This document shows, one piece after another, positions 17,915 through 51,414 of a stretch of DNA of 64,000 nucleotides; within the stretch, counting starts at the first letter, position 1; every line of letters begins with the position of its first letter. The notes beneath the pieces are model-generated. The model was not told the DNA's origin. It searched no databases and was given only the letters and a program-made list of their open reading frames with translations. The position numbers and the translations under genes were made by a program. The DNA comes from an uncultured Bacilli bacterium (GTDB lineage: Bacteria; Bacillota_I; Bacilli_A; RF39; UBA660). Location of the stretch: positions 210,896-274,895 of the forward strand of contig CAKOLI010000001.1 in assembly GCA_934096265.1 (NCBI GenBank), in the 5' to 3' direction.

Positions 17915-17962
17915 TGTTTTAAAGATTGAGATTTTTATATTAGGATTTCAATCTTTTTTTGT
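17913..17962. repeat. 50-bp direct repeat, copy 1, containing the ppdK terminator hairpin
   Basis: AATGTTTTAAAGATTGAGATTTTTATATTAGGATTTCAATCTTTTTTTGT is identical to 28328-28377. Stem AAAGATTGAGAT / ATTTCAATCTTT followed by a T-run. Confidence 0.9.
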
Positions 17963-18114
17963 TTAAATTTAGATATGATTTTAAAAGTTTTATTTTGTGC
18001 TTTACATATTTTTTTTAAAAATGAAAATATTTAGATATATACTGAAAAAGTATGGTATAATAAAGATGATATACATAGTATGGCGTTAATTATAATGGAC
18101 TGGAGGATTACTGA

Positions 18115-18369
18115 ATGAATAAGTATCTTATTACTATAATTGTTCCAACTATTGAGTTAGAGTATGATGTATATATTCCAAATAATAAGAAGATTGGGAC
18201 TATTAAAACTCTTATTTTGAAATCACTTAGTGAACTATCTAATAATTCGTTTAATAAGAAAATAGATGAGGTAAGAATAATAGATAGAGATACTGGTAAT
18301 GAATTTGAAAATAATATGTATGTCAAAGATTCAGAAATAAAAAATGGGTCCAAGATTATTATTATGTAA
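18115..18369 (+). CDS. esaB: EsaB/YukD-like small ubiquitin-fold T7SS protein
   Basis: 84 aa with the typical YukD length. Beta-grasp-like pattern (ITIIVP...YDVYIP). First gene of the T7SS operon. RBS GGAGG 8 nt upstream. Extended -10 TGGTATAAT at 18053-18061. Confidence 0.6.
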   Translation: MNKYLITIIVPTIELEYDVYIPNNKKIGTIKTLILKSLSELSNNSFNKKIDEVRIIDRDTGNEFENNMYVKDSEIKNGSKIIIM

Positions 18370-18378
18370 TGGGAGGAG

Positions 18379-18678
18379 GTGATATCTATGGATAGTTTAA
18401 GGATTAATTATGATGAAACTATTTCAGTGGGAAATCAAGTGTCAAATAAAGGAGGAGAATTTCAAGACCTTTTGACTAAAATTAAGTCTATTAATTCTGA
18501 ATTGAAGAGTTATTGGGAAGGTAGTGATGCTTCTAAATATGCGTCTGCTGTTGAACAACAATCTGTATATATGCAAGAACTTGCTGATACTATTAATGAA
18601 ATAGGTGGATTTTTAGTAAAAGTTGGGCAAGCATATCGTGAAGCTTGCCAAAATAATGCAAATGCTATTAAAGGTTAG
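18379..18678 (+). CDS. WXG100 family protein (EsxA-like)
   Basis: 99 aa helical hairpin with central W-x-G (YWEGSDA). Confidence 0.8.
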   Translation: MISMDSLRINYDETISVGNQVSNKGGEFQDLLTKIKSINSELKSYWEGSDASKYASAVEQQSVYMQELADTINEIGGFLVKVGQAYREACQNNANAIKG

Positions 18679-18689
18679 GAGGTTAAAAT

Positions 18690-18980
18690 ATGGATTTTTC
18701 TAAATTATCGTATGGTCAAGTCCAATCAATGGCGGAACAATTAAAGACTTCTGCAGATAAAATGGAAACTCTTTTAAGTGAAATTAAGACATTATTTGAT
18801 AAAATTGGAACAGATGATGTTTGGAGTGGAACAGCTGCGGCTGCTACTAAAGAAACATTTGATCAATTGAGTGCTAAATTTCCTGAGTTTTCTCAATCAA
18901 TAAGTGAATGTTCTACATACTTAGTATCTATGGTTGAAAATTATCAATCAGTTGATTCTATGGTTACAGGTGGTAAGTAA
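18690..18980 (+). CDS. WXG100 family protein
   Basis: 96 aa, central WSG (DVWSGTAA). Confidence 0.75.
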   Translation: MDFSKLSYGQVQSMAEQLKTSADKMETLLSEIKTLFDKIGTDDVWSGTAAAATKETFDQLSAKFPEFSQSISECSTYLVSMVENYQSVDSMVTGGK

Positions 18981-19061
18981 AATGAGCTCAAGTGAGCTCT
19001 TCTTACAGATGGATAATAATTCTTGATTACTATCTATCTGTGAGGAGTTGGGAGTGATAAA

Positions 19062-19355
19062 TTGAATATAGAGATAAATGTTTCAGATGTAGCAAGTTAT
19101 GGGAAACAGATGGTTGAGTGTTCTGGTATGTTTGATGATTCTGTAAAAGAATTTAATGCTTTGATAGATGCTATTAATACTATTTGGGATGGAGCAGATG
19201 CTTTAAAGTATGTAAATACTATGAGAGAGAAATATATTGTTGGGTTAAATGAGCTTAAAGAGTATATGTTAGAATATGGAACTTATTTACAGAAGGTGCC
19301 TGAGAGTTATTCGGCGCTTGATGAAGTGTTTTCATCAAAAAATATAGATGTGTGA
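19062..19355 (+). CDS. WXG100-like protein, possible Lap1-type LXG-effector targeting factor
   Basis: 97 aa, central WDG (TIWDGADA). Its stop overlaps the next gene's start by 4 bp (ATGA). Confidence 0.6.
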   Translation: MNIEINVSDVASYGKQMVECSGMFDDSVKEFNALIDAINTIWDGADALKYVNTMREKYIVGLNELKEYMLEYGTYLQKVPESYSALDEVFSSKNIDV

Positions 19356-19705
19356 GGTGGGGTATGAATATATCATATAGTCAAGTAGAATCACAATGTA
19401 ATCAATTACATGAAACAGCTAAAAAAATGAAGGATATATTAGATATGGTTTCAGAAATAAGAAAGAATGCTTGTAATAGTGCTTCTTGGAATGGAGAGGC
19501 ATCTAATGCATATTCAGAGAAATTAAGTTTGCTGATTGGAAGTTTTGATGAGGCATTTTTAGAGATAGAAAATAGTATTTTGTATATGGCTAGTTGTTCT
19601 TCTGGATATCAAGCATTAGATCAACGGGTAATGCAAGAGATTTGCTCTAATTTAAATATTACCGAACCTAATTTAAGTACGTCTAATATTTTTGGTGTTA
19701 ATTAG
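19352..19705 (+). CDS. WXG100-like protein, possible Lap-type targeting factor
   Basis: 117 aa, central WNG (SWNGEASNA). Translationally coupled to the upstream gene. Confidence 0.6.
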   Translation: MRWGMNISYSQVESQCNQLHETAKKMKDILDMVSEIRKNACNSASWNGEASNAYSEKLSLLIGSFDEAFLEIENSILYMASCSSGYQALDQRVMQEICSNLNITEPNLSTSNIFGVN

Positions 19706-19706
19706 T

Positions 19707-20192
19707 ATGGATTTTGAAAATGTAGATGTACCTAGTTTGGTAAATGCACTTACACAATGCAAAGATTCGATAGATTATAAGGCGTCTTTAGAGTTAATTA
19801 ATGATATATCAAATGTTTCTGTATGGCAATCTTCTTCACAATCAAATTTAAAAAATGCTCTAACGATACTTACCACGAATAGGTATACAGAACTTAAAGA
19901 TAAGATAGATTGTTATTTGACTGTAGCTTCTTATATAGCACAATATCAAAACTTAAGCAAAGAGAATATTCTTTTAAATAAGCAATATAATGATTTGTCT
20001 TATAAATTATATTATGAAGAAGAGTATGAAACTCCTGTTACTTTAGCAGATGGAACTGTAATTAATGAGATAAATACAAGAAAAGTTATGGATAAAAATA
20101 TAAATAATCAAATGAATAATATAAAAAATAAAATAGATAAAAATAAAGAAAAAATGGATGAATTAAAAAAAATAATATATAATTCTATTTAA
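19707..20192 (+). CDS. small helical T7SS-associated protein (possible Lap2/DUF3958-like)
   Basis: About 160 aa, predicted all-helical. Sits between the WXG-like genes and the effector. No specific motif recognised. Confidence 0.35.
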   Translation: MDFENVDVPSLVNALTQCKDSIDYKASLELINDISNVSVWQSSSQSNLKNALTILTTNRYTELKDKIDCYLTVASYIAQYQNLSKENILLNKQYNDLSYKLYYEEEYETPVTLADGTVINEINTRKVMDKNINNQMNNIKNKIDKNKEKMDELKKIIYNSI

Positions 20193-20205
20193 GGAGGAAA
20201 GAAAA

Positions 20206-20487
20206 ATGAATTATGAAAAATATTTACCTATAGGTACAGTTGTGATTTTAAAAAATGGTACAAAGAGGGTTATGATTACTGGTTTTTGTTCAATATCTAA
20301 TGGAGATAAATCAAAAGTTTTTGATTATTCTGGATGTTTGTATCCAGAAGGGTTTATTTCTTCTAATCAAACTTTGTTATTTAACCATGATCAAATAGAG
20401 AAAGTATTTTATTTGGGGTTTGTAGATGATGAAGAAAAAAACTTTAAAGCTAAATTAAATGAAATGCTAAAACAAATTAATCAATAA
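20206..20487 (+). CDS. DUF4176-like small protein (T7SS/LXG-associated family)
   Basis: 93 aa. Motifs LPIGTVVILKNG...VMITGF...GCLYPEGF...LFNHDQIEKVFYLGF fit my memory of the DUF4176 consensus. Confidence 0.55.
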   Translation: MNYEKYLPIGTVVILKNGTKRVMITGFCSISNGDKSKVFDYSGCLYPEGFISSNQTLLFNHDQIEKVFYLGFVDDEEKNFKAKLNEMLKQINQ

Positions 20488-20518
20488 TTTAATTAAATAT
20501 TTGGAAAGGAGTAAAAAA

Positions 20519-23365
20519 ATGAATGATATGTTCAAGATTAATGTTTCATTGTTAAAATCTTATGAAAGTAAATTTAATACAGAATTAAATAGTTTTAATA
20601 ATAAAACTTATGCTACCTTTTCATCTAGTTATTTAAATAGTTGTGCTGATGGTTGTGTTAGTAAGATGGCAAGCCAACTAGAAAAAATATATGAAACAAT
20701 AAAAAAAGGATATACAAATATTGATAAGTGGTGGATTGATTATAATGATAATGCTTCTGGGTTAGAAAATTATTTGTCTGGCAAAGGTAGTCTTGGATCA
20801 ATATCTGAAGCAAGTATTAGGAATAGTGCTAGTCAGTTACCTGAATTAAAAAAATATAATCTTGATTTTGCAGGGATTATTCCTGCTGGTATAGCTGGTG
20901 CAGAATATGGTATGGCGTTTGCTAATAACACGGTAGTATCTAGTGTTGGTACATTTGATACGATAGATTCTGAAGTTCCTTCTTTAGGCTCAGTAATATC
21001 TGATACAGTTGAGAGTGTATTTTCGGGTATTGCTGGTTGGTTTTCGTCTATACCTTGGTTAGAGAATGCCGCTAATTTTTATTGGAATATAATTAAATCT
21101 ACTGGTGCTACTTTGGCAGTTTTTGTTCAATCTTTAATTCAAGGAATAGGTCAGTTTGTAGAAGCAATAGTTGATCTTGTGGCTATTGTTGGTACTGCTG
21201 CTGCATCTATTGTAACTGGATTATGGGATGGTGGCCAAGCTATTTGGGGAGCAATAACTGGTGAAGATTGGGAATCTTTAACAAAAAAAATGTGGAATGG
21301 GACAATGGGGTTTGTTGCAACCCAATATGTTGTAGGTTGGATGGATTTATTATATCAAAATACTGGATATGGTCAATGGTTAGTTGATAATGCCCTAGGT
21401 TTTGATATTGTTAGAGGTATTGGGTCAGGAATAGGATATGTTGCTGGGATAGTAGCTTTAACTATTGCAACATTTGGAGTTGGAGGAGTCGCTGTTGCGG
21501 GAGGTAGTGCGGCCGCTGGAGGTGCTACTGCTGCCGCCGCTGGGAGTGCTACTGCCGCGGGTGGTATTACTATGTCTACTCAATTAGCAATAACTGCCAC
21601 GGCTGCTGGAATAGGAAAGGGCGTACAGAATGCTTGGGCTGATGGTGCAAGTTTAGTTAAAGGATTAATCGCCGGAATACTTAATGGCCTATGGGAAGGA
21701 TTTCAATTTTATATAGGTGGTAAAATTAGTGGCTTGAATATTTTTGGGGGAAAAGGCCTTTTAGAATCAGTAAAGCTTTCAGGTGTAGGTACACAAGTAT
21801 TGAATAGTCTTGGTCGTATAATTTTAGATGGTATTGATGGTGGCGCAGAAGGTTTTGTTACTCCTCTTATTCAGACTATATATAAAGATGGTTATTATGA
21901 TGAGAATGGAGAGTATGTTGAGTTTTCAGATGTTAAGAGTCTTTCTGATGTTTTCGAACGTTATGGTAAAATATTTGAGGAAAATGGTGGCTTTGTAAAT
22001 GTCTTGACGCAAGCTTCTGTTGGTGCAATATCTTCTTTGATAGGGGAACTGTTTGATTTAAGAAAATATTTTGGTAATAAGAAGAGTGAAAGTAAAGTTA
22101 ATATGACATCTGATGAGTTGCAAATAACGCTTGATAAATATAATGAATTAATGGAAATTAAAAATAGTGATGATTATAAGAAATATATGGATTTGAAGAA
22201 TAATAAGTTATTTAAAGGTTCTATGCCAGAGTTTGATGGTGTAGAAAATGAACTTGCATCTATTTCTCTTGAACTAGCGCGTTATAAGTATAATCAATTA
22301 GTAGAAATTAAAAATAGTGATGATTATATTTCGTATATGGATAATGTTAAGAATGGATATAATCAAACTCCAAGACCAGAATTTGATAATATAGAAATGG
22401 AGTTTAAGGCGGTAGAATCTGACTTGGCAAAGATGGTACGACAACAACAATTTAAAATAGAAAAAGATAATGCTTTAAATGAATTTCAAAAAGTGATTAA
22501 AAAGGGCAAAAAGAGTGATAAAGAAGCAATAGACCTTATGTATGAACTTTTTGATACTAGTATTGTAGATGAAAACTGGGATGCCTTGAATGCATTACAG
22601 GCATTTAATAAAGCTAAAGAGAAAAATCCTTCAATACATCTAACTTCACTTGATGGACGAAATTGCTATAGTCCTTATTCTTATTCTATAAATATTAATA
22701 AAGGCAATAAAGTAAAAGAATTTATGGCTCATGAATTAGGTCACTTGTTCCATTTTGAATTACTAGATGAGGTTACTCCTGATAATTTCAATATGCTACT
22801 TGATAATGCGCGAGCTAGTTTATCACCAGATTCAGTAACAAATCAATTTAGTAGTTATTATAATGAAGCTAAAAAAGAGTTTAACGATTTAGCATTAAAT
22901 GATTATTACACTTCTAAATTAGATTCTGATTTTTCTAGATTTTCTAGTATAGAGAATAAATCTCCTTATGTTAATATGACATATGATGAATTTCTAAAAG
23001 CATACACTGAAGACTTTGCAAAAAAACATCCTGAGGTTTCAGTAAGTGATTTAGAATATTTGACTACAAATGATATTAGAATGGATATTTATGCTGTAAA
23101 TACAGAATATATGTATGATAATGGCATTCAAGCACTTTCTGATATTTGTGATGCTTTTTTAAAAGGAAAACTTGATGTTCCAGGTGCACTGGGTCATGGT
23201 GTAGCGTATTATTCTCTTCCTGATGATAGAGAGTTTAAGGAAATGATTGCAAACTTTACTGCAATGAAAATTATGGGAAATAAAAAAACTTTACAAATGA
23301 CAAAAGAAATAATTGGTACATCATTGTATGATGTACTTGATGGTACTTTTAAGCAATTTAAGTAG
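20519..23365 (+). CDS. Large T7SS substrate: LXG-like N-terminal helical domain, glycine-zipper hydrophobic core and C-terminal HEXXH metallopeptidase-like domain (candidate polymorphic toxin)
   Basis: N-terminal about 120 aa helical with L-S-G (YLSGKGSLG). Residues about 120-400 are rich in GxxxG/AxxxG runs (GIGSGIGYVAGIVALTIATFGVGGVAVAGGSAAAGGATAAAAGSATAAGG). The C-terminal region has HELGHLFHFE. Start moved to the ATG after RBS GGAAAGGAG. Confidence 0.55.
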   Translation: MNDMFKINVSLLKSYESKFNTELNSFNNKTYATFSSSYLNSCADGCVSKMASQLEKIYETIKKGYTNIDKWWIDYNDNASGLENYLSGKGSLGSISEASIRNSASQLPELKKYNLDFAGIIPAGIAGAEYGMAFANNTVVSSVGTFDTIDSEVPSLGSVISDTVESVFSGIAGWFSSIPWLENAANFYWNIIKSTGATLAVFVQSLIQGIGQFVEAIVDLVAIVGTAAASIVTGLWDGGQAIWGAITGEDWESLTKKMWNGTMGFVATQYVVGWMDLLYQNTGYGQWLVDNALGFDIVRGIGSGIGYVAGIVALTIATFGVGGVAVAGGSAAAGGATAAAAGSATAAGGITMSTQLAITATAAGIGKGVQNAWADGASLVKGLIAGILNGLWEGFQFYIGGKISGLNIFGGKGLLESVKLSGVGTQVLNSLGRIILDGIDGGAEGFVTPLIQTIYKDGYYDENGEYVEFSDVKSLSDVFERYGKIFEENGGFVNVLTQASVGAISSLIGELFDLRKYFGNKKSESKVNMTSDELQITLDKYNELMEIKNSDDYKKYMDLKNNKLFKGSMPEFDGVENELASISLELARYKYNQLVEIKNSDDYISYMDNVKNGYNQTPRPEFDNIEMEFKAVESDLAKMVRQQQFKIEKDNALNEFQKVIKKGKKSDKEAIDLMYELFDTSIVDENWDALNALQAFNKAKEKNPSIHLTSLDGRNCYSPYSYSININKGNKVKEFMAHELGHLFHFELLDEVTPDNFNMLLDNARASLSPDSVTNQFSSYYNEAKKEFNDLALNDYYTSKLDSDFSRFSSIENKSPYVNMTYDEFLKAYTEDFAKKHPEVSVSDLEYLTTNDIRMDIYAVNTEYMYDNGIQALSDICDAFLKGKLDVPGALGHGVAYYSLPDDREFKEMIANFTAMKIMGNKKTLQMTKEIIGTSLYDVLDGTFKQFK

Positions 23366-23391
23366 GTAATTAAGGAAAGAGATGGTTATAT

Positions 23392-23634
23392 ATGGATGAT
23401 AAAGATAATAGATTGTTATGGAATATTTTGGAAGTTAAATATTTAAAAATGTTTGGTAGAGAGATTAGTTGTGATCCGAATGATAGTTATGACCTTTTTC
23501 CTTTAGGTTGGTATTTGGATATTGATGTTGATACAAAGATTAAAATTTTATTAGAGGCATTAGAGAATAATAAAAAAATAGTAGATACATCTTTATATCA
23601 AGATATGTTGAATGAAAGAGATAAAAGATTATAA
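23392..23634 (+). CDS. candidate immunity protein for the upstream effector (80 aa)
   Basis: Small ORF immediately 3' of the toxin C-terminal domain, the position typical of immunity genes. No homology recognised. Confidence 0.35.
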   Translation: MDDKDNRLLWNILEVKYLKMFGREISCDPNDSYDLFPLGWYLDIDVDTKIKILLEALENNKKIVDTSLYQDMLNERDKRL

Positions 23635-23694
23635 ATATATATCAGAATATATCAGACCTTTTTATGATGTTATTTTAGGAAGGAGTATAATACA

Positions 23695-26600
23695 ATGCGA
23701 GTTTCAACGATAAGGGCATTAAAAATTAATAATATACTGTTACCAGATAAGATAGAAGGGAATTATTGGATTGATGGTACTGATGATAATGGTATAAAAA
23801 GGAATTTAATATCTATAGAGTCTTATGATGGTAAATGGAGATTAATAAGTAATAAGGAAGTTTATTGTGTAGTAGCTGGGGAGAAGGTTCCATATATTAA
23901 TTTGGAAGAGGGTAAATTTTATTTAGTGGTTAATAGTGTAGCTAAGGAAAATTTATTGTTGTATTGTTCTTCTGTTTTGGCTAGTTATAATTGTTATGAT
24001 ATAGAAGAATTTTTGAAAGATGGAATAACTATTGGTAGTGAACCTAGTAATTTGATTACGTATTCTATTTTAGATTCTTTATGTGCTTGTATTAAATATG
24101 AAAAGGGAAATGTTTTTGTTGTAGATAATAAGTCAAGATGTGGTGTGTATGTAAATGATGTTAGAGTTATAGGAAAAAGGGAGTTAAAAATAGGGGATAT
24201 TATTTTTATTGCTGGTGTGAAGATTATATTTTCTATAAATTCTAAAAAGACTCATTGTATTTATGTTAATGATGGTTCTTTAAATGGAGTGGGTGTGAAA
24301 TTATCAAAAACTGTGGATATGCAAGTAGTTAATAATGATTTTTATGAATTAGAGCAGGAAGTGGAATATCCATTATATGATGAGAAAGATTATTTCCATA
24401 AGGTTCCTAGGTTTTTTCAAAAAGATGAGGCTTTAGTTTTACAAGTTGATCCACCTCCTGCGAAAGTAGATGAAGGGAATAATTCTTTATTATTGACAAT
24501 AGGTCCAATGATAACGATGTCTATGACTTCTTTGGTTACTGGTTATATGGCTTTAAATAATGTTTTAAATGGGGATGCTACTTGGGCTAAAGCGACACCT
24601 TCGTTAGTTATATGTGGCGCGATGTTTGCTAGTGTATTTATATGGCCTATATTTACTAAGTGGTATGATAAGAAAAATAGAATTAAGAATGAGTTGCTTA
24701 GGCAGCAAAAATATAGTGAGTATATAGAAGCTAAGAGGAAGATGATTATAGAAGCTAAAAACCAACAGACGGCAATATTGACAAATAATTATATAAATAT
24801 AAAAGAGGCTGTAGATACTATTTTAAGAAAATATACTGGGTTATGGCAACGTAGGATAGAAGATGATGACTTTTTAGATGTAAATTTGGGATATGGAAGT
24901 TATCCAATGAAAATTGATATTAAGTATCCAGAAGAAAGGTTTTCAATGGTTGAGGATAATCTAAAGGATATGGTATTAAAGTTAGGGCAAGAGCCTAAGT
25001 TGTTGTTAAATGTACCAGTTGTGTTTTCTTTAAGGGAAGCTTTTATAAGTGGTATAATTGGTGGGTATGAAATTAATGAGTTTACTAGAAGGTTGTTAAT
25101 TCAAATACTTGCTTTACATAGTTATGATGATTTGAAAATTGTTTTTTTGACTGATGAAGAAAAAGAATCTGAATGGAAGGTATTTAAACAGGTTCCTCAT
25201 TGCTTTTCTGATGATAAGAGTTTAAGATTTTTCGCGACAAATAATGATGAATATAAAGAGGTTTGTTATTATTTAGATAAGATTTTTGATTATAGAAAAG
25301 AAAAGTCTAATACGGATAGTAAGATAAATAGTTTTAATCAATCTTTTTTAATAGTGACAGATAGTTTTAAGAAGATTAGGAATTTTGATATTATTAAAGA
25401 TATTTTGGAGAGTAAGAAATATTATGGTTTTAGTATTTTGATTTTAGATAATAAGATAACTAATTTGCCTGATCAATGTTCTGATTTTATAAGTTTAAGT
25501 AAGGATAATGGGGAACTTAGAAATAATAAGAATATAACTGAAAGTATTAAATTTTCGGTGGATTTATTATCAAGTGTTGATTATGATGGTTGTGTTAAGG
25601 CATTAGCTAATATTCCAATAGAATTGTCTTTAGATGATGAAAACCAAATTGCCTCTAAGATAGGTTTTTTAGAGATGTATGATGTTGGGAAGATAGAACA
25701 GTTGAATTCTCCGACTAGGTGGGTTAAAAATAATCCAATTTTAAATTTGCAAGTTCCGGTTGGTATTGGTAAAAGTGGGGAAAAGATTACGATTGATTTG
25801 CATGAGAAGTATCATGGTCCACATGGGTTAATTGCTGGTATGACGGGAAGTGGGAAGTCAGAGTTTATTATTACGTATATTTTATCAATGGCTATAAATT
25901 ATCATCCATATGAAGTTCAGTTTATTTTGATTGATTATAAAGGTGGAGGATTAGCGGGGGCTTTTGAGAATAGTAGTACTGGATTAAAGTTACCACATTT
26001 GGTTGGAACTATTACTAATTTGGATGCTAATGAGATAAAGAGGAGTCTTGCTTCTATTGATTTTGAGTTAAAAAGAAGGCAAGCATTATTTAATACTGCA
26101 AGGGAATTTTCTGGAGAGGGTACAATTGATATTTATAAGTATCAAAAGATGTATAGAGATGGTATTGTTAAGGAACCTGTTTCACATTTGTTTATTATAT
26201 GTGATGAGTTTGCAGAATTAAAGAGTCAGCAACCAGAGTTTATGGCACAGTTAATTTCAACAGCACGTATTGGTCGTTCTTTAGGGGTGCATTTGATTTT
26301 AGCTACGCAAAAGCCAAGTGGTGTGGTCGATCCCCAAATATGGAGTAATACAAGATTTAGAGTATGTATGAGGGTGCAAGATAAGTCTGATTCAAATGAG
26401 GTTATTAAATGTCCTGATGCTGCATATTTAAAGCAAACAGGAAGGTTTTATTTTCAAGTAGGGTTTAATGAAGTGTTTTTACTAGGACAAGCTGCTTATG
26501 CTGGTGGGAAATATATTCCATCTGAAAAGGTAACTAAGACAATAGATACAACTATTAATTTTATTGATAATATTGGTTATACGATTAAGAAGGTTGATAC

Positions 26601-28326
26601 TAAGGTTAAAACTGATACTGTAGTTGTGGATATTGGAGAGGAATTAAGTAATATAGTAAAATATTTAGATAATATTGCAAAGGAACAAAATATTAAATGT
26701 AGGCCATTATGGTTGGAGAAGATTCCAGAGGATATTAGAATAGAGAATTTGGCTTTAAAATATAAATATGAGAAAGAAGAATATATAATTAATCCAATTA
26801 TTGGGGAATATGATATACCTTCAAGGCAAGAACAAGCTTTGTTAACTTTGCCATTATCAAAAGAGGGTAATGCATTGATTTATGGTTCTTCAGGAAGTGG
26901 TAAAGAAAACTTTATTACAACATTGCTTTATTCATCTAGTATGTATTATTCACCAGAAGAGGTAAATTATTATGTAGTTGATTTTGGTTCTGAAGTTTTA
27001 AGGATGTTTAATGATTATCCAATTGTAGGTGATATATTAGATTCAGATGATGAAGAGAAAATTAAAAATTTATATAAGATGTTAAACGCGACGATTGAAG
27101 AGAGAAAGATTTTATTTTCTGAATATAATGGAGATTATTATACTTATTGTAAGAATAATGGTAAGGCTATTCCAAGTATTGTAGTAGTTATAAATAATTA
27201 TGAGTCATATCAAGAAACATATCCAGAGTTTGATGATATGCTTATTGTATTATCAAGGGAGTGTAATAAATATGGTATATTCTTTGTGCTTACTGTTAAT
27301 ACTCCGAATGGGTTACGTTTTAAGTTAAGACAAAATTTTTCGTTAACATATGTATTGCAACAAAATAGTAATGATGATTATACAACTATTTTAGGTAATG
27401 TATATAAAAATTATCCTGCAAAGATTTTTGGTAGAGGGATTTTTAAGACGGATGATGTATATGAATTTCAAACTGCTTTGGTAAGTGATAAGGATAATAT
27501 TATTAAATATGTAAAAGATAAGAAAAATGAGTTAAAGAATAAATATTCTACTATGGCTAAGCGAATTCCTGTTTTGCCTAATGTTGTGGATTATTCTTCA
27601 ATATATAAAGATTTTGGTAAGTCATCATCTTTAATTATTGGTATTGATAAATCTTCTTTGAAAATATGTAAATTTGATTTTAATAAAAATTATTTAACTA
27701 TAATTTCAATGTTGGATTTAACTGCAAGTAGTAATTTTTTAAATCCATTTATAAATCAAATTATTGCTAATAATAATTCAATGTTATTTGTTATAAATGC
27801 TTCTGATGACGAGATAGATGATAAGTATAAATCACAATATCAGTATGTTGATCATCAATTTAATGAGGTTTTTGTTAATTTATTAAATTTTGTGAAAGAG
27901 CAATATGATGGTTATGTTAAAAATGATTATAATAAGAATATTTTTAATAATATGAGGAAGGTATATTGTATTATAATAGGGATTGATTCTTTTAAGATGC
28001 GTCTTAATGATGATAACAAGAGTAAATTTGCTGATTTATTTATAAACGGTAAGGATTTAGGTATAATTAGTTTTATAATTGTAGATAGTATTGATCAGAT
28101 TAGAAAGGTAGAGATGGAATCTTGGTATAAAAATTGTGTTAATAACAATTTTGGTATTTGGATAGGTAATGGTATAAATGATCAGTTTAGTTTGAGGATA
28201 AGTCAAAAGATTGAAGAGATGAAAGAAGATGTTCCGAATAATTTCTGTTTTGTAATTAAACGCGGTAGGGTTCAATATGTAAAATTCGTTGAAAAATTAG
28301 AGTTAGATATTAAAAGTAATGAGTAA
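23695..28326 (+). CDS. essC: T7SS FtsK/SpoIIIE-family ATPase EssC/YukBA
   Basis: 1543 aa. N-terminal FHA-like region, 2 TM segments (about aa 270-320), three P-loop ATPase domains (GMTGSGKSE; LILATQKPSGVVD; degenerate GSSGSGKEN). Confidence 0.9.
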   Translation: MRVSTIRALKINNILLPDKIEGNYWIDGTDDNGIKRNLISIESYDGKWRLISNKEVYCVVAGEKVPYINLEEGKFYLVVNSVAKENLLLYCSSVLASYNCYDIEEFLKDGITIGSEPSNLITYSILDSLCACIKYEKGNVFVVDNKSRCGVYVNDVRVIGKRELKIGDIIFIAGVKIIFSINSKKTHCIYVNDGSLNGVGVKLSKTVDMQVVNNDFYELEQEVEYPLYDEKDYFHKVPRFFQKDEALVLQVDPPPAKVDEGNNSLLLTIGPMITMSMTSLVTGYMALNNVLNGDATWAKATPSLVICGAMFASVFIWPIFTKWYDKKNRIKNELLRQQKYSEYIEAKRKMIIEAKNQQTAILTNNYINIKEAVDTILRKYTGLWQRRIEDDDFLDVNLGYGSYPMKIDIKYPEERFSMVEDNLKDMVLKLGQEPKLLLNVPVVFSLREAFISGIIGGYEINEFTRRLLIQILALHSYDDLKIVFLTDEEKESEWKVFKQVPHCFSDDKSLRFFATNNDEYKEVCYYLDKIFDYRKEKSNTDSKINSFNQSFLIVTDSFKKIRNFDIIKDILESKKYYGFSILILDNKITNLPDQCSDFISLSKDNGELRNNKNITESIKFSVDLLSSVDYDGCVKALANIPIELSLDDENQIASKIGFLEMYDVGKIEQLNSPTRWVKNNPILNLQVPVGIGKSGEKITIDLHEKYHGPHGLIAGMTGSGKSEFIITYILSMAINYHPYEVQFILIDYKGGGLAGAFENSSTGLKLPHLVGTITNLDANEIKRSLASIDFELKRRQALFNTAREFSGEGTIDIYKYQKMYRDGIVKEPVSHLFIICDEFAELKSQQPEFMAQLISTARIGRSLGVHLILATQKPSGVVDPQIWSNTRFRVCMRVQDKSDSNEVIKCPDAAYLKQTGRFYFQVGFNEVFLLGQAAYAGGKYIPSEKVTKTIDTTINFIDNIGYTIKKVDTKVKTDTVVVDIGEELSNIVKYLDNIAKEQNIKCRPLWLEKIPEDIRIENLALKYKYEKEEYIINPIIGEYDIPSRQEQALLTLPLSKEGNALIYGSSGSGKENFITTLLYSSSMYYSPEEVNYYVVDFGSEVLRMFNDYPIVGDILDSDDEEKIKNLYKMLNATIEERKILFSEYNGDYYTYCKNNGKAIPSIVVVINNYESYQETYPEFDDMLIVLSRECNKYGIFFVLTVNTPNGLRFKLRQNFSLTYVLQQNSNDDYTTILGNVYKNYPAKIFGRGIFKTDDVYEFQTALVSDKDNIIKYVKDKKNELKNKYSTMAKRIPVLPNVVDYSSIYKDFGKSSSLIIGIDKSSLKICKFDFNKNYLTIISMLDLTASSNFLNPFINQIIANNNSMLFVINASDDEIDDKYKSQYQYVDHQFNEVFVNLLNFVKEQYDGYVKNDYNKNIFNNMRKVYCIIIGIDSFKMRLNDDNKSKFADLFINGKDLGIISFIIVDSIDQIRKVEMESWYKNCVNNNFGIWIGNGINDQFSLRISQKIEEMKEDVPNNFCFVIKRGRVQYVKFVEKLELDIKSNE

Positions 28327-28327
28327 G

Positions 28328-28377
28328 AATGTTTTAAAGATTGAGATTTTTATATTAGGATTTCAATCTTTTTTTGT
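28328..28377. repeat. 50-bp direct repeat, copy 2 (terminator hairpin after essC)
   Basis: Identical to 17913-17962. Confidence 0.9.
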
Positions 28378-28437
28378 ATAGGGGAGTAGAAATAATGTTA
28401 ATTATTTGATATAATGTTTATAGTAGGAGTGATTGAT

Positions 28438-37374: not shown

Positions 37375-37812
37375 ATGAATGAAAATAATGAATTACTTAT
37401 GTATATCTATCAAAATGTAGATATGGGTGTTAAGGCTACTACTCATCTTATTAATTTATTAAATAAGAAAGATAATAAGATAAAGAGTATTGTAGAAGGA
37501 CAATTAAAGGGATATGAGAATTTTCTTAAGGAGAGTAAGAAGTTACTTAAGAAGAATAAGATAGAGCCTAAAGAGAAGGGGATACTCGCGGATTTAGGTT
37601 CTTCTATAGGAATGAACATAGAATTTATGAAGGATAATAGTGATACTCGTATCGCGGATATGTTAATTAAGGGGTTTACAATGGGAAATTTAGATATTGA
37701 TAAGAGAATTAATAGTTTTAGTGGTGATGCTGATAAAAAGATATTAAAGTTAGCTAAGGATTTAAAGAAGTTTGGAGAAGAAAATATAGAACTATTAAAA
37801 CCTTATTTATAA
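37375..37812 (+). CDS. hypothetical helical protein
   Basis: 145 aa. No motif recognised. Confidence 0.35.
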   Translation: MNENNELLMYIYQNVDMGVKATTHLINLLNKKDNKIKSIVEGQLKGYENFLKESKKLLKKNKIEPKEKGILADLGSSIGMNIEFMKDNSDTRIADMLIKGFTMGNLDIDKRINSFSGDADKKILKLAKDLKKFGEENIELLKPYL

Positions 37813-37837
37813 TTTATAAGATAAATATATAAAAATA

Positions 37838-38135
37838 TATTTACTAATAATTAAATTTATGATATGATTAGTTCATAAAATAAGTGAATTTAAAAGTTAG
37901 AAAAAATTCGCAAATTTTTGATAAAAATTAATAAGATTTTAGGAGTTGATAGTGATGAGTAATGTTAACCAAAAATGTCCTAAAACCCTTATTTTACTAG
38001 GGGGGGGGGCAATTACAAATCCTTATAAATAAAGGGTTTAAGCCTCATTTTAACTATCAAAAATATATAAATCTATATTAGAGATATAGCTATTTTAGTT
38101 ATATTTTTTGATATAGTTTTTTTATATTTAATTAG
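37838..38135. repeat. Conserved about 300-bp upstream element, copy 1, with G10 tract (38000-38009) inside a 25-codon mini-ORF (37955-38032)
   Basis: About 90% identical to 49282-49582. Mini-ORF MSNVNQKCPKTLILLGGGAITNPYK is preceded by AGGAG 9 nt upstream. Confidence 0.85.
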
Positions 38136-38220
38136 TAGTATCTTATTAGTTAATTCTACACATTTTTAAATTATAATGTGGTATGATAATTTTAATGATA
38201 GAAAGGGAGTAAGAAAATAT

Positions 38221-40155
38221 ATGGATAATAACAAGAGAATATATTTAATAATAGGAGTAATAACTATTACTATGCTAATAATGGGAGCAACTACTGCGTG
38301 GTTTACTTGGAATAGTACAGATAATACAGATGTAACGTTTAATGTAGAAGGTTTAGATATTACTTATACAGGAGATGAAAATGTATTAAATAAAAAGCTA
38401 TATCCTACATCCTCGATGACTAATACTGATAATGTAATACATAAATTTAGCCTAGTAACTACATCTAATATAGATATATATACTAAAATATCATTAGATA
38501 TAATAAAACTAGATGATAACTTAAAAGATGTATCATTTAGATGGAACTTATATAAAGAAGATACATCTATTGCCAGTGGTAACTTTAGTAATGCTACAGT
38601 AGGTAGCGATGTACTACTTACTCAAGCAATGATAACAACTACATCAACTAATTACACATTATTTATCTGGATAGATGGAGAAAACTACAGTAACCCAATA
38701 GCCATGGGAGATAAAGAGTTTTATTTTAAATTAAAACTAGAAGCAGGCCAACAGGTATATCTTACTCCAGAAGAGTGCTTTAACTTTGATGAAAGTACTG
38801 GTACTATAACTAGTTATTTGTGCACTAGTGGTAATAGCAATAATTTACCAACTATAACGGATGTAGTAATACCTAGCGAAATTAATGGAGTAACAGTAAC
38901 TGCAATAAAAACTTGGGCATTTGTTAATCGTAATTTAACAAGCGTAACAATACCAGACAGTGTAATAACAATAGGAATGTATGCGTTTAATAATAACAAG
39001 CTAACAAGTATAAAAATCCCAAATAGTGTAACAACAATAGGCAGTTCTGCTTTTGGTAGAAACAACATAACAAGTATTTATATTCCAGATAGTGTAACTT
39101 CAATAGATGGTAATATAATTACTTATAATCCTAGTTTAGCAAGTATAACGGTATCCCCAAATAATAAAGTATACGATAGCAGAGACAATTCAAATGCAAT
39201 AATAGAAACATCTAGTAATACATTAATACAAGGATGTAAAAATACTATTATACCTAATACAGTTACCTCTATAGGACGTTCTTCTTTTTCTGGTAATGAT
39301 TTAGCAAGTATAACAATTCCAAATAGTGTAACAACAATAGGCAGTTCTGCTTTTTACACAAATAAACTAACAAGCATAACAATTCCAAATAGTGTAACAA
39401 CAATAGGTGGTAATGCTTTTGGGGGAAACGAAATAGCAAACATTTACATTCCAGAAAATGTAACTTCAATAGGTAGTAATGTGCTTGCTGTTAATCCTAG
39501 TTTAGCAAGTATAACGGTATCGCCCAATAATAAAGTATATGATAGTAGAAATAATTCAAATGCAATAATAGAAACATCTAGTAATAAATTAATACAAGGA
39601 TGTAAAAATACTGTTATACCTAATACGGTTGTATCAATAGGATATTTAGCCTTTGGTGGTTTAAATTTAACAAGTATAACAATACCAGACAGTGTCACAA
39701 CAATAGGTGATAATGTCTTTCAAGATAACAATTTAACAAGTATAACAATTCCAGACACTGTCACATCAATTGGAGACGAAGCTTTTCAATATAACAATTT
39801 AACAAGTATAACAATTTCAAATAGTGTAACAACAATAGGGTACCGTACATTTTATAATAATAATTTAACAAGTGTAACAATTCCAGATAACGTTACAACA
39901 ATAAAATATGAAGCCTTTGCTGATAACAATTTAACAACTGTGTATATAGGTAAAAATTCCAAACTAAGCAGCCTAGGGCGTAGTACCTTTGGTTCAACCT
40001 CATCATCTAACACTAACTTGTCTAAAATATACAATCTAGGTAGTAAATCATTAAATTGGAACTTAGCAATAACGGGTACATCTGGTACCGCTTTCGTAAG
40101 TGGCACAGTAACAACCTCTGATGGAAGAACAGTAACTATAACAACTAGTGAGTAA
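38221..40155 (+). CDS. Paralog C. SipW-cognate-like signal, TasA-like N-domain, BspA-type leucine-rich repeats (LRR_5); no lectin-like C-domain.
   Basis: N-terminus MDNNKRIYLIIGVITITMLIMGATTAWFTWNST. At least 12 repeats of the form ITIPNSVTTIGSSAF-N-LTS. N-terminal 200 aa homologous to the 49603 gene product. Confidence 0.65.
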   Translation: MDNNKRIYLIIGVITITMLIMGATTAWFTWNSTDNTDVTFNVEGLDITYTGDENVLNKKLYPTSSMTNTDNVIHKFSLVTTSNIDIYTKISLDIIKLDDNLKDVSFRWNLYKEDTSIASGNFSNATVGSDVLLTQAMITTTSTNYTLFIWIDGENYSNPIAMGDKEFYFKLKLEAGQQVYLTPEECFNFDESTGTITSYLCTSGNSNNLPTITDVVIPSEINGVTVTAIKTWAFVNRNLTSVTIPDSVITIGMYAFNNNKLTSIKIPNSVTTIGSSAFGRNNITSIYIPDSVTSIDGNIITYNPSLASITVSPNNKVYDSRDNSNAIIETSSNTLIQGCKNTIIPNTVTSIGRSSFSGNDLASITIPNSVTTIGSSAFYTNKLTSITIPNSVTTIGGNAFGGNEIANIYIPENVTSIGSNVLAVNPSLASITVSPNNKVYDSRNNSNAIIETSSNKLIQGCKNTVIPNTVVSIGYLAFGGLNLTSITIPDSVTTIGDNVFQDNNLTSITIPDTVTSIGDEAFQYNNLTSITISNSVTTIGYRTFYNNNLTSVTIPDNVTTIKYEAFADNNLTTVYIGKNSKLSSLGRSTFGSTSSSNTNLSKIYNLGSKSLNWNLAITGTSGTAFVSGTVTTSDGRTVTITTSE

Positions 40156-40224
40156 GTTTAGTAGAACTATTTAAAAAAAATTTTTAGGAAAAAGGTTGTC
40201 AATTATTTTAAAAAGTGATATATT

Positions 40225-40440
40225 ATTGGAAAGAGATATATTAGTATTTTAAATAAAGAAGTAGTTGGGTAGCTATTATATATAGAGAGTTAGTGGTTGG
40301 TGGAAACTAATTAGGGTTATTTAATGAATTACATATTTATAGCTAATCGGATGTTATCCGTTATAAGAAGAGAAATAATTAAGGTGGTACCACGGGTTTA
40401 TCTCGTCCTTAGGTGCTACCTTTTTATTATTATAGGGAGG
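40225..40440 (+). promoter_or_regulatory. T-box riboswitch leader (Tyr) upstream of tyrS
   Basis: AGAGA near the 5' end. T-box sequence AATTAAGGTGGTACCACGGG at 40377-40396. Downstream terminator GGTGGTACC...GGTGCTACC followed by TTTTT. Confidence 0.55.
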
Positions 40441-49281: not shown

Positions 49282-49582
49282 TATTTACTAAAAATTAATT
49301 TTATGATATGATTAGTTCATAAAATAAGTGAATTGAAAAATGCCAAAAATTCACAAGTTTTGATAAAAATTAATAAGATTTTAGGAGTTGATAGTGATGA
49401 GTAAAGTTAACTATAAGTGCTCTAAAACCCTTATTTCACTAGGGGGGGGGGCAATTACAAAGCCTTATAAATAAAGGACTTAAGCCTCATTTTAACTATC
49501 AAAAAAACACATATAAATCTATATTAGAGATATAGCTATTTTTAGCTTGTATTTTTAATGTAGATTTTTTTATATTTAAATA
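49282..49582. repeat. Conserved about 300-bp upstream element, copy 2, with G10 tract (49442-49451) inside a 25-codon mini-ORF (49397-49474)
   Basis: Mini-ORF MSKVNYKCSKTLISLGGGAITKPYK, with the same RBS and spacing as copy 1. Confidence 0.85.
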
Positions 49583-49602
49583 AAAGAAGGAGAGTGTTGT
49601 AC

Positions 49603-51414
49603 ATGGATAATAATAAGAGAGTATACTTAATAATAGGAGTAATAACTATTACAATGTTAGTTATGGGAGTAACTACTGCATGGTTTACTTGGAATAGTAC
49701 TACTAATACAGATGTAACATTTAATGTTAATGGGTTAGATATTATTAATACTAATGTAGATATAATAGGTAAGAAGTTATATCCTACAAATAATAAAGAA
49801 AACGGAGTAGTAGAAGAGTTTACTGTTAAACAAAACAGTGAGATATCTACACCAGTATGTAGTGATTTTACTCTTACATTAACTACACTACCTATAGAAC
49901 TACAACATAAGAGTTTTAAATATAAACTATATAATGGAACTAGTTTAGTAGGAAGTGGTAACTTTGAAGGTAAAACACAAGGACAAGTAATAACTATTGC
50001 AACAAGTCAACCTGTTACAAGTGAGATATCTACATATAAATTATACATTTGGATAGATGGTAATATGGATAATCCTTTATCTATGGGAGGAAAAAGTTTT
50101 CTGTTTAAACTAACTATTAAAGCAAACCAACAAGAAAATGCATGTACACCTAGCATTATAACTTGTGATGCAGATGATGTAACACCAAACACTCCAGTTC
50201 TTGCTGATGGCATGATACCGATTAAATGGGATGGTTCTAAATGGGTAAAAGCAAGTACTGATAATTGGTATAATTATAGTAATAAAGAGTGGGCAAATGC
50301 TGTGATGGTTAGAACAGATAAGGATTCTAATGTTAATGGTTCTAGGTCTAGAGAACAATATATGAGTGCTGATGAAGGCACAAAAATATTAGAGAGTGAT
50401 ATATTAGCTTATTATGTATGGATACCAAGATATAAGTATCAATTATTTAATGTAAATTCTGAAAGCATGGACCCGATAGAAATATGCACTCAGTTTGAAG
50501 ATAAAGATACTACAAAGTCTACTGGAAATACAAATGGTGCTTGGCTTACCCATCCTGCGTTTACTTTTTGTACTGATGAATTATCAGGTATCTGGGTAGG
50601 CAAGTTTGAAACTAGTGTGGATGATAACGATGCATGTTATGGTAGCGTATCGCCTGCTAATTGTAATAAGGAATTAAATAACCCTAGAATAAAACCGAAT
50701 AAGTCATCTTTATTAGAACAACGAGTTATAAATCAGTTTTTGACATCTAAGAAGTTTGGTACTATTGACTATTTAACATCAGATGGAGTAAGTATGGTAG
50801 ATGCACATATGATGAAAAATACAGAATGGGGAGCAGTAGCATACTTAAAACAAAGTAAATATGGATTAGGTACTACTGATATAGCAATCAATGCGTATGA
50901 TAGAGGTGTTAACTCATATGTTTTCTTTATGACAGGATGTGGACCTGCGAGTGAAACTGATTTAACAAATGAAACAACAACATGTACAAGTTATACAAGT
51001 AGTGTAGGGATTAAAGCATCTACCACAGGTAATATTACAGGTATATACGATATGGCAGGTGGAGCATCTGAAAATGTAATGGGAGTAATGAAAAATACTG
51101 ATGGAACAGGCCTTACTTATTCATCTTCTGGATTTGCGGAAAGTACACTACCTTTAGGAAGTAAATATGTAGACGCATATACGTATGGAACATCTGATGC
51201 TGATTATACAAGAAGAATACTAGGAGATGCAACAGGAGAAACAAGAGGATGGTATTCAGACTATGCTTCCTTTCTTAATGATTCCACTTTTTCATTCTTT
51301 TCTCGTGGACTTATTTCTTACAATGGGTCTTCTGCGGGCGTGTTCACCTTTGCTCGCTCTACCGGAGGTATAAGCAATGCCTATTCCTTCCGTTCCACCT
51401 TGGCAACTCAGTAG
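49603..51414 (+). CDS. Paralog D. C-type N-terminus (shared with the 38221 gene) fused to the A/B-type conserved lectin-like C-domain.
   Basis: N-terminus MDNNKRVYLIIGVITITMLVMGVTTAWFTWNST. From about 50190 the sequence is about 90% identical to 12410-12730 (paralog B). 50925-51110 is about 93% identical to 11275-11460 (paralog A). Confidence 0.65.
   Translation: MDNNKRVYLIIGVITITMLVMGVTTAWFTWNSTTNTDVTFNVNGLDIINTNVDIIGKKLYPTNNKENGVVEEFTVKQNSEISTPVCSDFTLTLTTLPIELQHKSFKYKLYNGTSLVGSGNFEGKTQGQVITIATSQPVTSEISTYKLYIWIDGNMDNPLSMGGKSFLFKLTIKANQQENACTPSIITCDADDVTPNTPVLADGMIPIKWDGSKWVKASTDNWYNYSNKEWANAVMVRTDKDSNVNGSRSREQYMSADEGTKILESDILAYYVWIPRYKYQLFNVNSESMDPIEICTQFEDKDTTKSTGNTNGAWLTHPAFTFCTDELSGIWVGKFETSVDDNDACYGSVSPANCNKELNNPRIKPNKSSLLEQRVINQFLTSKKFGTIDYLTSDGVSMVDAHMMKNTEWGAVAYLKQSKYGLGTTDIAINAYDRGVNSYVFFMTGCGPASETDLTNETTTCTSYTSSVGIKASTTGNITGIYDMAGGASENVMGVMKNTDGTGLTYSSSGFAESTLPLGSKYVDAYTYGTSDADYTRRILGDATGETRGWYSDYASFLNDSTFSFFSRGLISYNGSSAGVFTFARSTGGISNAYSFRSTLATQ

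Follow-up and report, generated by a model that had tools for sequence, protein, structure and literature searches.

Why does a DNA segment poor in G+C carry two uninterrupted runs of ten G, each upstream of a gene encoding a secreted protein, and could changes in the length of these runs switch the genes on and off? We addressed this question using the window, i.e. the whole 64-kb stretch of DNA from an uncultured Bacilli bacterium that was analyzed here, together with related sequences from metagenome assemblies, designated below by L numbers. Exact-protein look-ups of flanking genes assigned the window to an uncultured organism of human-gut metagenomes (Hadza and other cohorts). The reading that we favor, albeit with modest confidence, is that the G10 runs are slippage-prone tracts in translated leader ORFs which control secreted surface-protein genes by attenuation.

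G tracts and leader ORFs in the window

The tract of the first leader (copy A) occupies positions 38000–38009 of the plus strand and is a candidate slippage site. In the G10 state it codes for Gly-Gly-Gly within a leader ORF of 25 codons followed by TAA (37955–38032, plus strand; peptide MSNVNQKCPKTLILLGGGAITNPYK). The Shine-Dalgarno (SD) sequence AGGAG of this ORF is located on the same strand at 37941–37945, 9 nt 5' of the ATG at 37955. The tract, the AGGAG-N9-ATG arrangement and the 25-codon ORF were thus all found where the initial annotation of this locus had placed them, and the distance of 190 bp that it gave between the mini-ORF and the downstream LRR gene was measured as 188 nt, from the ORF stop to the ATG at 38221. 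In the second leader (copy B), the G10 homopolymer is located at 49442–49451 and the leader ORF in its G10 state at 49397–49474 (both on the plus strand; peptide MSKVNYKCSKTLISLGGGAITKPYK), with the SD sequence at 49383–49387. The element is duplicated, as had been claimed: a second G10 leader precedes a paralogous gene. The two copies share about 90% identity from the −35 box to the U-tract; thereafter copy A has an extra segment of about 60–75 nt.

A run of ten G had been called extremely unlikely at about 28% GC. The run is indeed unexpected, but the window contains 30.7% G+C and its plus strand 21.7% G, so that it is less improbable than claimed. Runs of eight or more G are found only at the two leader sites (6 overlapping matches vs 0.42 expected; 0 of 100 shuffles reach 6), and apart from these, no G or C run in the 64-kb window exceeds six, and no A or T run reaches ten. 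The strand asymmetry is strong across the window, with 9.0% C next to 21.7% G on the plus strand, and nearly all genes are located on this strand.

The tracts end 211 nt (copy A) and 151 nt (copy B) before the ATG of the structural gene, and for this reason a contingency gene of the classical kind, whose structural ORF itself contains the repeat, was rejected. A role of a G-quadruplex was rejected as well, by reasoning rather than computation, as ten Gs seem too few for an intramolecular structure.

A change in tract length does shift the reading frame of the mini-ORF, as the initial annotation had proposed, and one G less opens a longer frame: with a single G removed, the ORF remains open for 41–45 codons. 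What is conserved is thus not the 25-aa peptide, as had been assumed, the 25-codon ORF being a truncated form of a frame of 41–48 codons found elsewhere. The extension specific to the G9 and G12 states of copy A comprises positions 38033–38081 of the plus strand and ends with TAG at 38079–38081 (present coordinates). The G9-frame stop of copy B is TAG at 49533–49535. Both stops are located within the 5' arm of a hairpin described below.

Leader anatomy

The tracts belong to a conserved leader of about 290–345 nt that contains a promoter, the RBS-preceded mini-ORF and a long AU-rich hairpin with U7, followed by the SD sequence of the secreted-protein gene. Promoter-like sites were found on the plus strand at 37840–37868 in copy A and at 49284–49312 in copy B. 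Both consist of TTTACT, a 17-nt spacer and TATGAT, and have the TG of an extended −10 box (TGATATGAT, 37860–37868 in copy A). The pattern TTTACT-17 nt-TGnTATGAT is kept in all aligned copies of the leader, and the AGGAG-N9-ATG arrangement and the ORF likewise occur in the two window copies and in every related copy. In the AT-rich region, promoter-like matches are no commoner than in shuffled sequences (26 vs 22.0 ± 4.1).

It had also been suggested that slippage could change promoter spacing. For the sense strand this was rejected, since 131 nt separate the tract from the upstream −10 box of the sole conserved sense promoter. In homopolymer switches of the promoter-spacer type, such as those of Neisseria porA and opc and of Mycoplasma hyorhinis vlp, the tract forms part of the spacer that separates the −35 from the −10 box. 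The window tracts do not share this position, and an antisense promoter-like site spans the tract in some copies only. This site, listed in our promoter scan, is located on the minus strand (TTGTAA, 16 nt containing C10, TAAAAT; 38018 to 37991), and the tract could set the length of its spacer, 16 nt with G10 and 15 nt with G9, the antisense transcript interfering with the sense promoter. We regard this as very unlikely, given that the antisense −10 box is not conserved, reading TGAAAT in half of the copies (copy B, L012, L019 and L024), and is not extended, that the spacer has 12 nt in L021, and that the count of promoter-like matches does not exceed that of the shuffles.

Several structures are predicted in the leader RNA. 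The 5' stem-loop spans positions 37877–37918 (plus strand), and all sequence changes in it preserve pairs (U-G/U-A, G-C/G-U). Folding further predicts a three-way junction at 37946–38060 (plus strand) with the leader ORF embedded in it. In this prediction, helix P1 is formed by 37946–37959 and 38044–38060 (CUCAUUUUAACUAUCAA) and encloses the start codon, helix P2 (37976–38011) pairs the G run with C/U-rich strands, and helix P3 corresponds to 38017–38039. Whole leaders fold better than shuffled sequences, with z = −3.1 and −4.2 for the two window copies. The sequences of P1 and the junction are invariant among the copies, hence the P1 pairing is outside the reach of a covariation test. Differences inside the predicted helices are all pair-preserving, but one-sided only, and the automatic alignments contain no two-sided compensatory base-pair change. 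When RNAalifold was applied to the hairpins, MAFFT misaligned the diverged arms of L034 and L002, so no covariation signal was obtained and single-sequence folds were used instead. The only match of the window to Rfam 15 at the gathering score is a tRNA, and a permissive scan of 37780–38260 yielded chance-level matches (E ≥ 0.12).

The hairpin of copy A (38073–38116, plus strand) is AU-rich and is directly followed by a U7 tract (38117–38123, plus strand). It is a predicted intrinsic terminator or attenuator with a core of −14.6 kcal/mol and z = −5.9 for 55 nt including AAAT and U7. The hairpin of copy B (49515–49567, with U7 at 49565–49571, plus strand) has −23.3 kcal/mol and z = −8.0. Across copies, the core hairpins have energies from −14.5 to −20.7 kcal/mol and are followed by 7–8 U; folded with the AAAT and U flanks, they have z from −5.9 to −8.2. 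The hairpin arms of L034 differ in sequence yet still pair (−18.9 kcal/mol, z = −6.9). For comparison, two terminator-like hairpins at gene ends in the window, each with U7, have −12.6 and −13.7 kcal/mol. By these folds, the long AU-rich hairpin is predicted to be a credible terminator. An alternative terminator of the trp type, formed by S3:S4, was rejected, as it is not conserved in copy B, whose A-to-G changes suit only the long hairpin.

In short-form leaders, e.g. copy B, the SD sequence of the gene lies within about 15 nt of the U-tract and there is no room for another promoter; therefore the gene must be transcribed by read-through of the hairpin. Long-form leaders (copy A, L011, L019, L021 and L034) have an extra segment of about 60–75 nt after the U-tract, at positions 38126–38200 in copy A (plus strand, boundaries approximate). 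This segment contains the extended −10-like sequence TGgTATGAT (38179–38187), which, judging from its sequence, may be a second promoter bypassing the switch in long-form leaders such as copy A.

Frame geometry and the proposed switch

In all eight copies read, the G10-frame stop is located 32–44 nt upstream of the hairpin, and the G9/G12-frame stop, 6 or 14 nt inside its 5' arm. The latter holds for L034 as well, with its different arms. The stop of the G11 frame is located 44–48 nt before the hairpin with the exception of L020, where this frame runs into the arm. When the leaders were folded with the ribosome footprint kept unpaired, the hairpin was lost in the G9 state and remained intact in the G10 state; in copy A, the G9 footprint fold still permits a weak alternative hairpin ahead of the U-tract. 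Of the two routes offered by the initial annotation, the leader peptide fits this anatomy, in that a strong hairpin with U7 is located between the mini-ORF and the gene and only the G9/G12 frame enters the hairpin.

In the switch that we propose, transcription would start at the conserved promoter, at about 37875 in copy A, and ribosomes would load at AGGAG-N9-AUG. With G10, and in most copies with G11, they would stop 32–48 nt before the hairpin and U7, and the hairpin would form. Most transcripts would then end there, leaving the gene OFF or weakly expressed. In the G9 and G12 states, the frame would be open for 41–46 codons and would end in the 5' arm, so that the ribosome would block the hairpin and RNA polymerase would read through to the gene (ON). 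Slippage by one G in replication, in either direction, would toggle these states. Here we infer that transcription terminates at the hairpin, that read-through is mediated by the ribosome, that the long frame corresponds to ON, and that switching is frequent and reversible. By analogy with the pilus operons discussed below, we read both window copies as being in the short-peptide, low-expression state.

The context of the leaders, with paralogous secreted proteins, strain-variable loci, mosaic leaders and frequent pseudogenes, fits a switch. Counting against it, besides the weak alternative hairpin of copy A and the possible second promoter of long-form leaders, are the AU-rich nature of the hairpin, with termination there being a prediction, and the fact that transcription outruns translation in Bacillus subtilis, which argues against ribosome-mediated attenuation in some Firmicutes.

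Leader copies in other assemblies and tract-length polymorphism

The leader was found at at least five chromosomal sites. These include locus A before tyrS (the window, L001, L007), locus B before mraZ (the window, L011, L012/L023, L019, L024), a site after the gene of a HAD hydrolase (L020), a site on a short contig (L021) and a site before infC (L034).

Comparison of strains, which the initial annotation had named as a check, revealed natural polymorphism of the tract at the nucleotide level. G10 is present in eight independent copies (the two window copies, L001, L007, L012/L023, L019, L020 and L024), and G9, in L011 and L034. In L034 the nucleotide sequence behind a GGGQ peptide is a G9 homopolymer, and the 601-aa LRR gene that follows it is intact; this peptide is recorded on 7 contigs. 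In L021, also at the nucleotide level, the 6-nt sequence GGATGG replaces the G tract and the long frame is open. The leaders of L011 (G9) and L019 (G10) are almost identical in all other respects, hence the tract length changes on a short evolutionary scale. At the same time, eight of the nine tract-bearing copies that were found via proteins of flanking or downstream genes, a search blind to tract length, have G10. This counts against the switch, as a freely switching tract might show more lengths.

The tract lengths are those of consensus assemblies, while G12 and other states were derived from called peptides. Homopolymers are error-prone, and the G9/G10 differences could in principle be sequencing or assembly errors. 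This explanation is hardly credible, since the same lengths recur across independent samples and assemblers (G10 in at least eight assemblies, the G9 peptide of L034 on its 7 contigs), and the tract is internal to contigs, with conserved sequence on both sides.

Alternatively, the attenuator might respond to a protein or a ligand that binds the junction, or to another factor of this sort, with the G-tract polymorphism being incidental and the mini-ORF not regulatory. In tract-less leaders of this gene family (L002 type), a hairpin and a U run likewise precede the SD sequence, so that read-through control exists without the tract; the invariance of the P1 and junction sequences points in the same direction. 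However, a run of G9–G10 is kept at at least five loci in a region otherwise devoid of long homopolymers, the frame geometry is alike in all copies, and no Rfam family matches the leader. Overall, control by such a factor with an idle tract appears improbable to us.

The leaders are mosaic: L011 and L019 join the 5' part of copy B to the mini-ORF and the long 3' part of copy A. Such mosaics indicate recombination between copies. Tract-dependent attenuation could be extended, although we consider this extension rather doubtful, to a leader acting as a portable recombining cassette that provides independent ON/OFF control of at least five paralogous surface-protein loci, i.e. an opa-like repertoire. 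In the same extension, transcription might also slip at the run of GGG codons, or ribosomes might shift frame by +1 there; G10 alleles would then leak into the long frame and expression would be graded, not binary.

Three Logan contigs (L013, L015 and L016) end within the element just past the promoter; a repeat present in multiple copies, at which assemblies break, would be expected to have this effect. In a genome collection containing one genome per species, a 20-mer of the element had 0 matches, and N-terminal peptide patterns of the family yielded 156 pattern matches, with no relative among them. The search with the N-terminus of the structural protein returned four fragments only. The search with TyrS gave strain variants, and look-ups via TyrS yielded no further copies of the element. 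The single match in JGI metagenomes (L018) was rejected as a chance hit to an unrelated contig with 37% GC.

Long frame and its called peptides

A profile of the hypothetical G9-frame peptides was searched against ORFs called by gene finders in public assemblies, and 26 clusters of called 36–48-aa ORFs were identified. The G9 frame, recognized by LGGGQLQ, is present in 11 clusters (23 contigs), and the G12 frame (GGGGQLQ), in two. Eight clusters have an interrupted or absent tract with the long frame kept (GWQLQ, RGQLQ, VGGQLQ, GGQLQ, KKLQ). Three frame-compensated clusters (P0140, P0143, P0148) contain GGGAIT, as in the G10 state, and then come back to the LINKG..PHFNYQK frame; thus, the long frame was regained by another frame change 3' of the tract. 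The last two clusters comprise a GGGRLQ variant (P0144) and a third-frame ORF (P0150). The 26 clusters form an ascertained sample, because gene finders do not call ORFs as short as the 25-aa form; hence they demonstrate that the long state is widespread and bear neither on its frequency nor on selection.

The 371,750-nt contig of ERZ4560700 (L007/L027), with G10 at locus A, may also encode the tract-less peptide P0149 (..LLKKLQSL..), as the longest contig of this cluster has the same length. If so, one genome carries both switchable and fixed leaders.

The ORF is called by gene finders in many assemblies and the core QLQSLINKGLKPHFNYQ recurs across clusters, as would be the case if the 41–48-aa frame encoded a small functional phase-variable protein without effect on the downstream gene. 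This is highly improbable. The C-terminus is encoded in two different frames (..KSILEI and ..YINLY), and the substitutions show little codon bias (3/2/5 by codon position before the tract and 1/2/3 after it; a weak and uninformative bias). Further, the long-frame peptide has no Pfam match, and the conserved core coincides with RNA helices P3 and P1.

In another explanation, the G run acts as RNA and is not translated, its length tuning helix P2 or the pairing with a C/U-rich small RNA and, consequently, mRNA stability or translation. In the predicted folds, UGUCCU and CCCUUA, both located upstream, are partners of the G run, and the leaders fold better than shuffles, as stated above. Besides, there is a documented case: in Helicobacter pylori, the leader of tlpB contains a G-repeat of variable length that is targeted by the small RNA RepG (PMC8295292). 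The likeness is in the variable homopolymeric G-repeat located in the mRNA leader of a surface-related gene. However, G pairs with C and U alike, which places the P2 helix beyond the covariation test, and there is no C run of six or more in the 64-kb window. The tract is replaced by GGATGG in L021 and, as derived from several peptide clusters, by R-G and K-K while the long frame stays open, and a role as RNA leaves unexplained why the long frame always ends in the hairpin arm. We consider this explanation unlikely: whereas tlpB is controlled by small-RNA pairing, the frame and terminator geometry of the present leaders suggests a ribosome-based mechanism.

Comparison with known switches

Attenuation dependent on repeat slippage has been demonstrated experimentally for the pil1 and pil3 operons of Streptococcus gallolyticus, where slippage of GCAGA repeats in the leader peptide controls a premature terminator (PMC3894217, Danne et al. 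2014). Translation of the short peptide ends 39 or 33 bp ahead of a terminator of −18.7 or −28.2 kcal/mol, and little is expressed; that of longer peptides ends within or past the terminator, which the ribosome keeps from forming, and transcription is raised (PMC3894217). The order of elements is the same in pil1/pil3 and in the window: a promoter, an RBS-preceded leader ORF with a simple repeat, a stem-loop terminator (predicted in our case) and a gene of a surface structure. The short frame stops 39 and 33 bp before the hairpin in pil1/pil3 vs 32–44 nt here, in both systems a shift of frame yields a longer peptide whose stop is located within or past the hairpin, and both hosts are gut-associated Firmicutes. 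We took an arrangement to be of the pil type if at least about 28 nt lay between the stop of the short frame and the hairpin and if another frame ended in or beyond the hairpin, and observed it in eight of eight copies. A switch of this type is also defined by clonal subpopulations with high and low expression and by reversible switching at ~1e-3 to 1e-4 per generation.

The two systems differ in several respects. The repeat is a mononucleotide of G9/G10 here vs 13–22 GCAGA units in pil1/pil3. In most of our copies one of the three frames is long, whereas in pil1/pil3 both out-of-frame changes lengthen the peptide. The genes here encode non-pilus secreted proteins, namely a BspA-type LRR protein and an uncharacterized paralogue, as opposed to pilus operons. 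The presence of at least five recombining loci and the location of the ORF within a predicted three-way junction also set the window leaders apart. Both window leaders lack a GCAGA array and have no sequence similarity to the pil leader. The match extends to the features testable by sequence, except the GCAGA repeat and homology; given the different repeat, the lack of sequence similarity and the different gene family, the window leaders would be an analogue, and are not a homologue, of the pil1/pil3 switch.

In the literature searched, no second system of attenuation by a repeat in a leader peptide was found beyond these two pilus operons of one streptococcus. The homopolymer in place of GCAGA repeats, the multi-locus family and the gut Firmicute as the host are new here; the switch logic itself is already known. 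Confirmation of the proposed mechanism would mean that this logic arose independently on a repeat of one base, that an entire family of variable secreted proteins can be placed under its control, and that it operates in a commensal common in non-industrialized human guts (Hadza and other cohorts). The combination of an RBS-preceded ORF containing a homopolymer with one frame ending in the 5' arm of a terminator may be used as a search signature for metagenomes. It also gives a warning that surface proteins may be silent in most cells despite an intact gene.

Premature termination in the leader of a phase-variable surface-protein gene is known for cwpV of Clostridioides difficile, where one of the states forms the terminator. 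There the switch is a site-specific DNA inversion without a leader peptide, whereas repeat slippage is proposed here. In the trp and pyrBI attenuation of Escherichia coli, the position of the ribosome on the leader ORF decides whether the terminator hairpin forms. This position is set by metabolite supply, whereas in the window leaders it would be set by a heritable frameshift. The trp attenuation was discussed for the pil switch as well (PMC3894217).

In Moraxella catarrhalis, a G(n) tract of about 9–12 nt is located upstream of the adhesin gene uspA1, and its length sets the mRNA level; the tract length that is 'high' varies by strain via a nearby 1-nt indel (PMC7302503). This indel parallels the frame-compensated clusters P0140, P0143 and P0148. 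The uspA1 system differs from the window leaders in that its host is Gram-negative, no leader ORF or terminator logic has been described for it, and the expression is graded rather than frame-periodic.

Downstream genes and locus variation

Gene A (38221–40155, plus strand) encodes a 644-aa secreted BspA-type LRR protein and has the SD sequence AAAGGGAG at 38202–38209. Gene B (49603–51414, plus strand) encodes a 603-aa paralogue with the same signal-peptide region; its SD sequence is GAAGGAGAG at 49586–49594. The C-terminal half of gene B (50180–51227) shares blocks of 76–89% identical DNA with the tandem genes at 9413–11779 and 11792–13576. These tandem genes differ from gene B in their signal peptide and lack the G-tract leader.

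The site between a 145-aa gene and tyrS (37813–40412 of the window) is allelic among strains. Some strains have the LRR gene with the G-tract leader at this site; others (L002–L006, L008–L010, L025, L026, L028) have a 602/623-aa paralogue with a tract-less leader that still contains a hairpin and a U run. Several family members are broken: the gene in L019 (3001–4797) has a TAT-to-TAG nonsense change at codon 145, the gene in L010 (3631–5502) is split into 430 and 121 aa, and the genes in L021 (850–1182) and L022 (110–457) are truncated after 110 and 115 aa, respectively.

The window also contains a type VII secretion cluster (18115–28326), which includes three genes of the WXG100 family (18379–19355) and a 1543-aa FtsK/SpoIIIE ATPase with an FHA domain (23695–28326). 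A 56-nt terminator-like sequence is repeated with 96% identity at 17910–17965, after the PPDK gene, and at 28325–28380, after the EssC-like gene.
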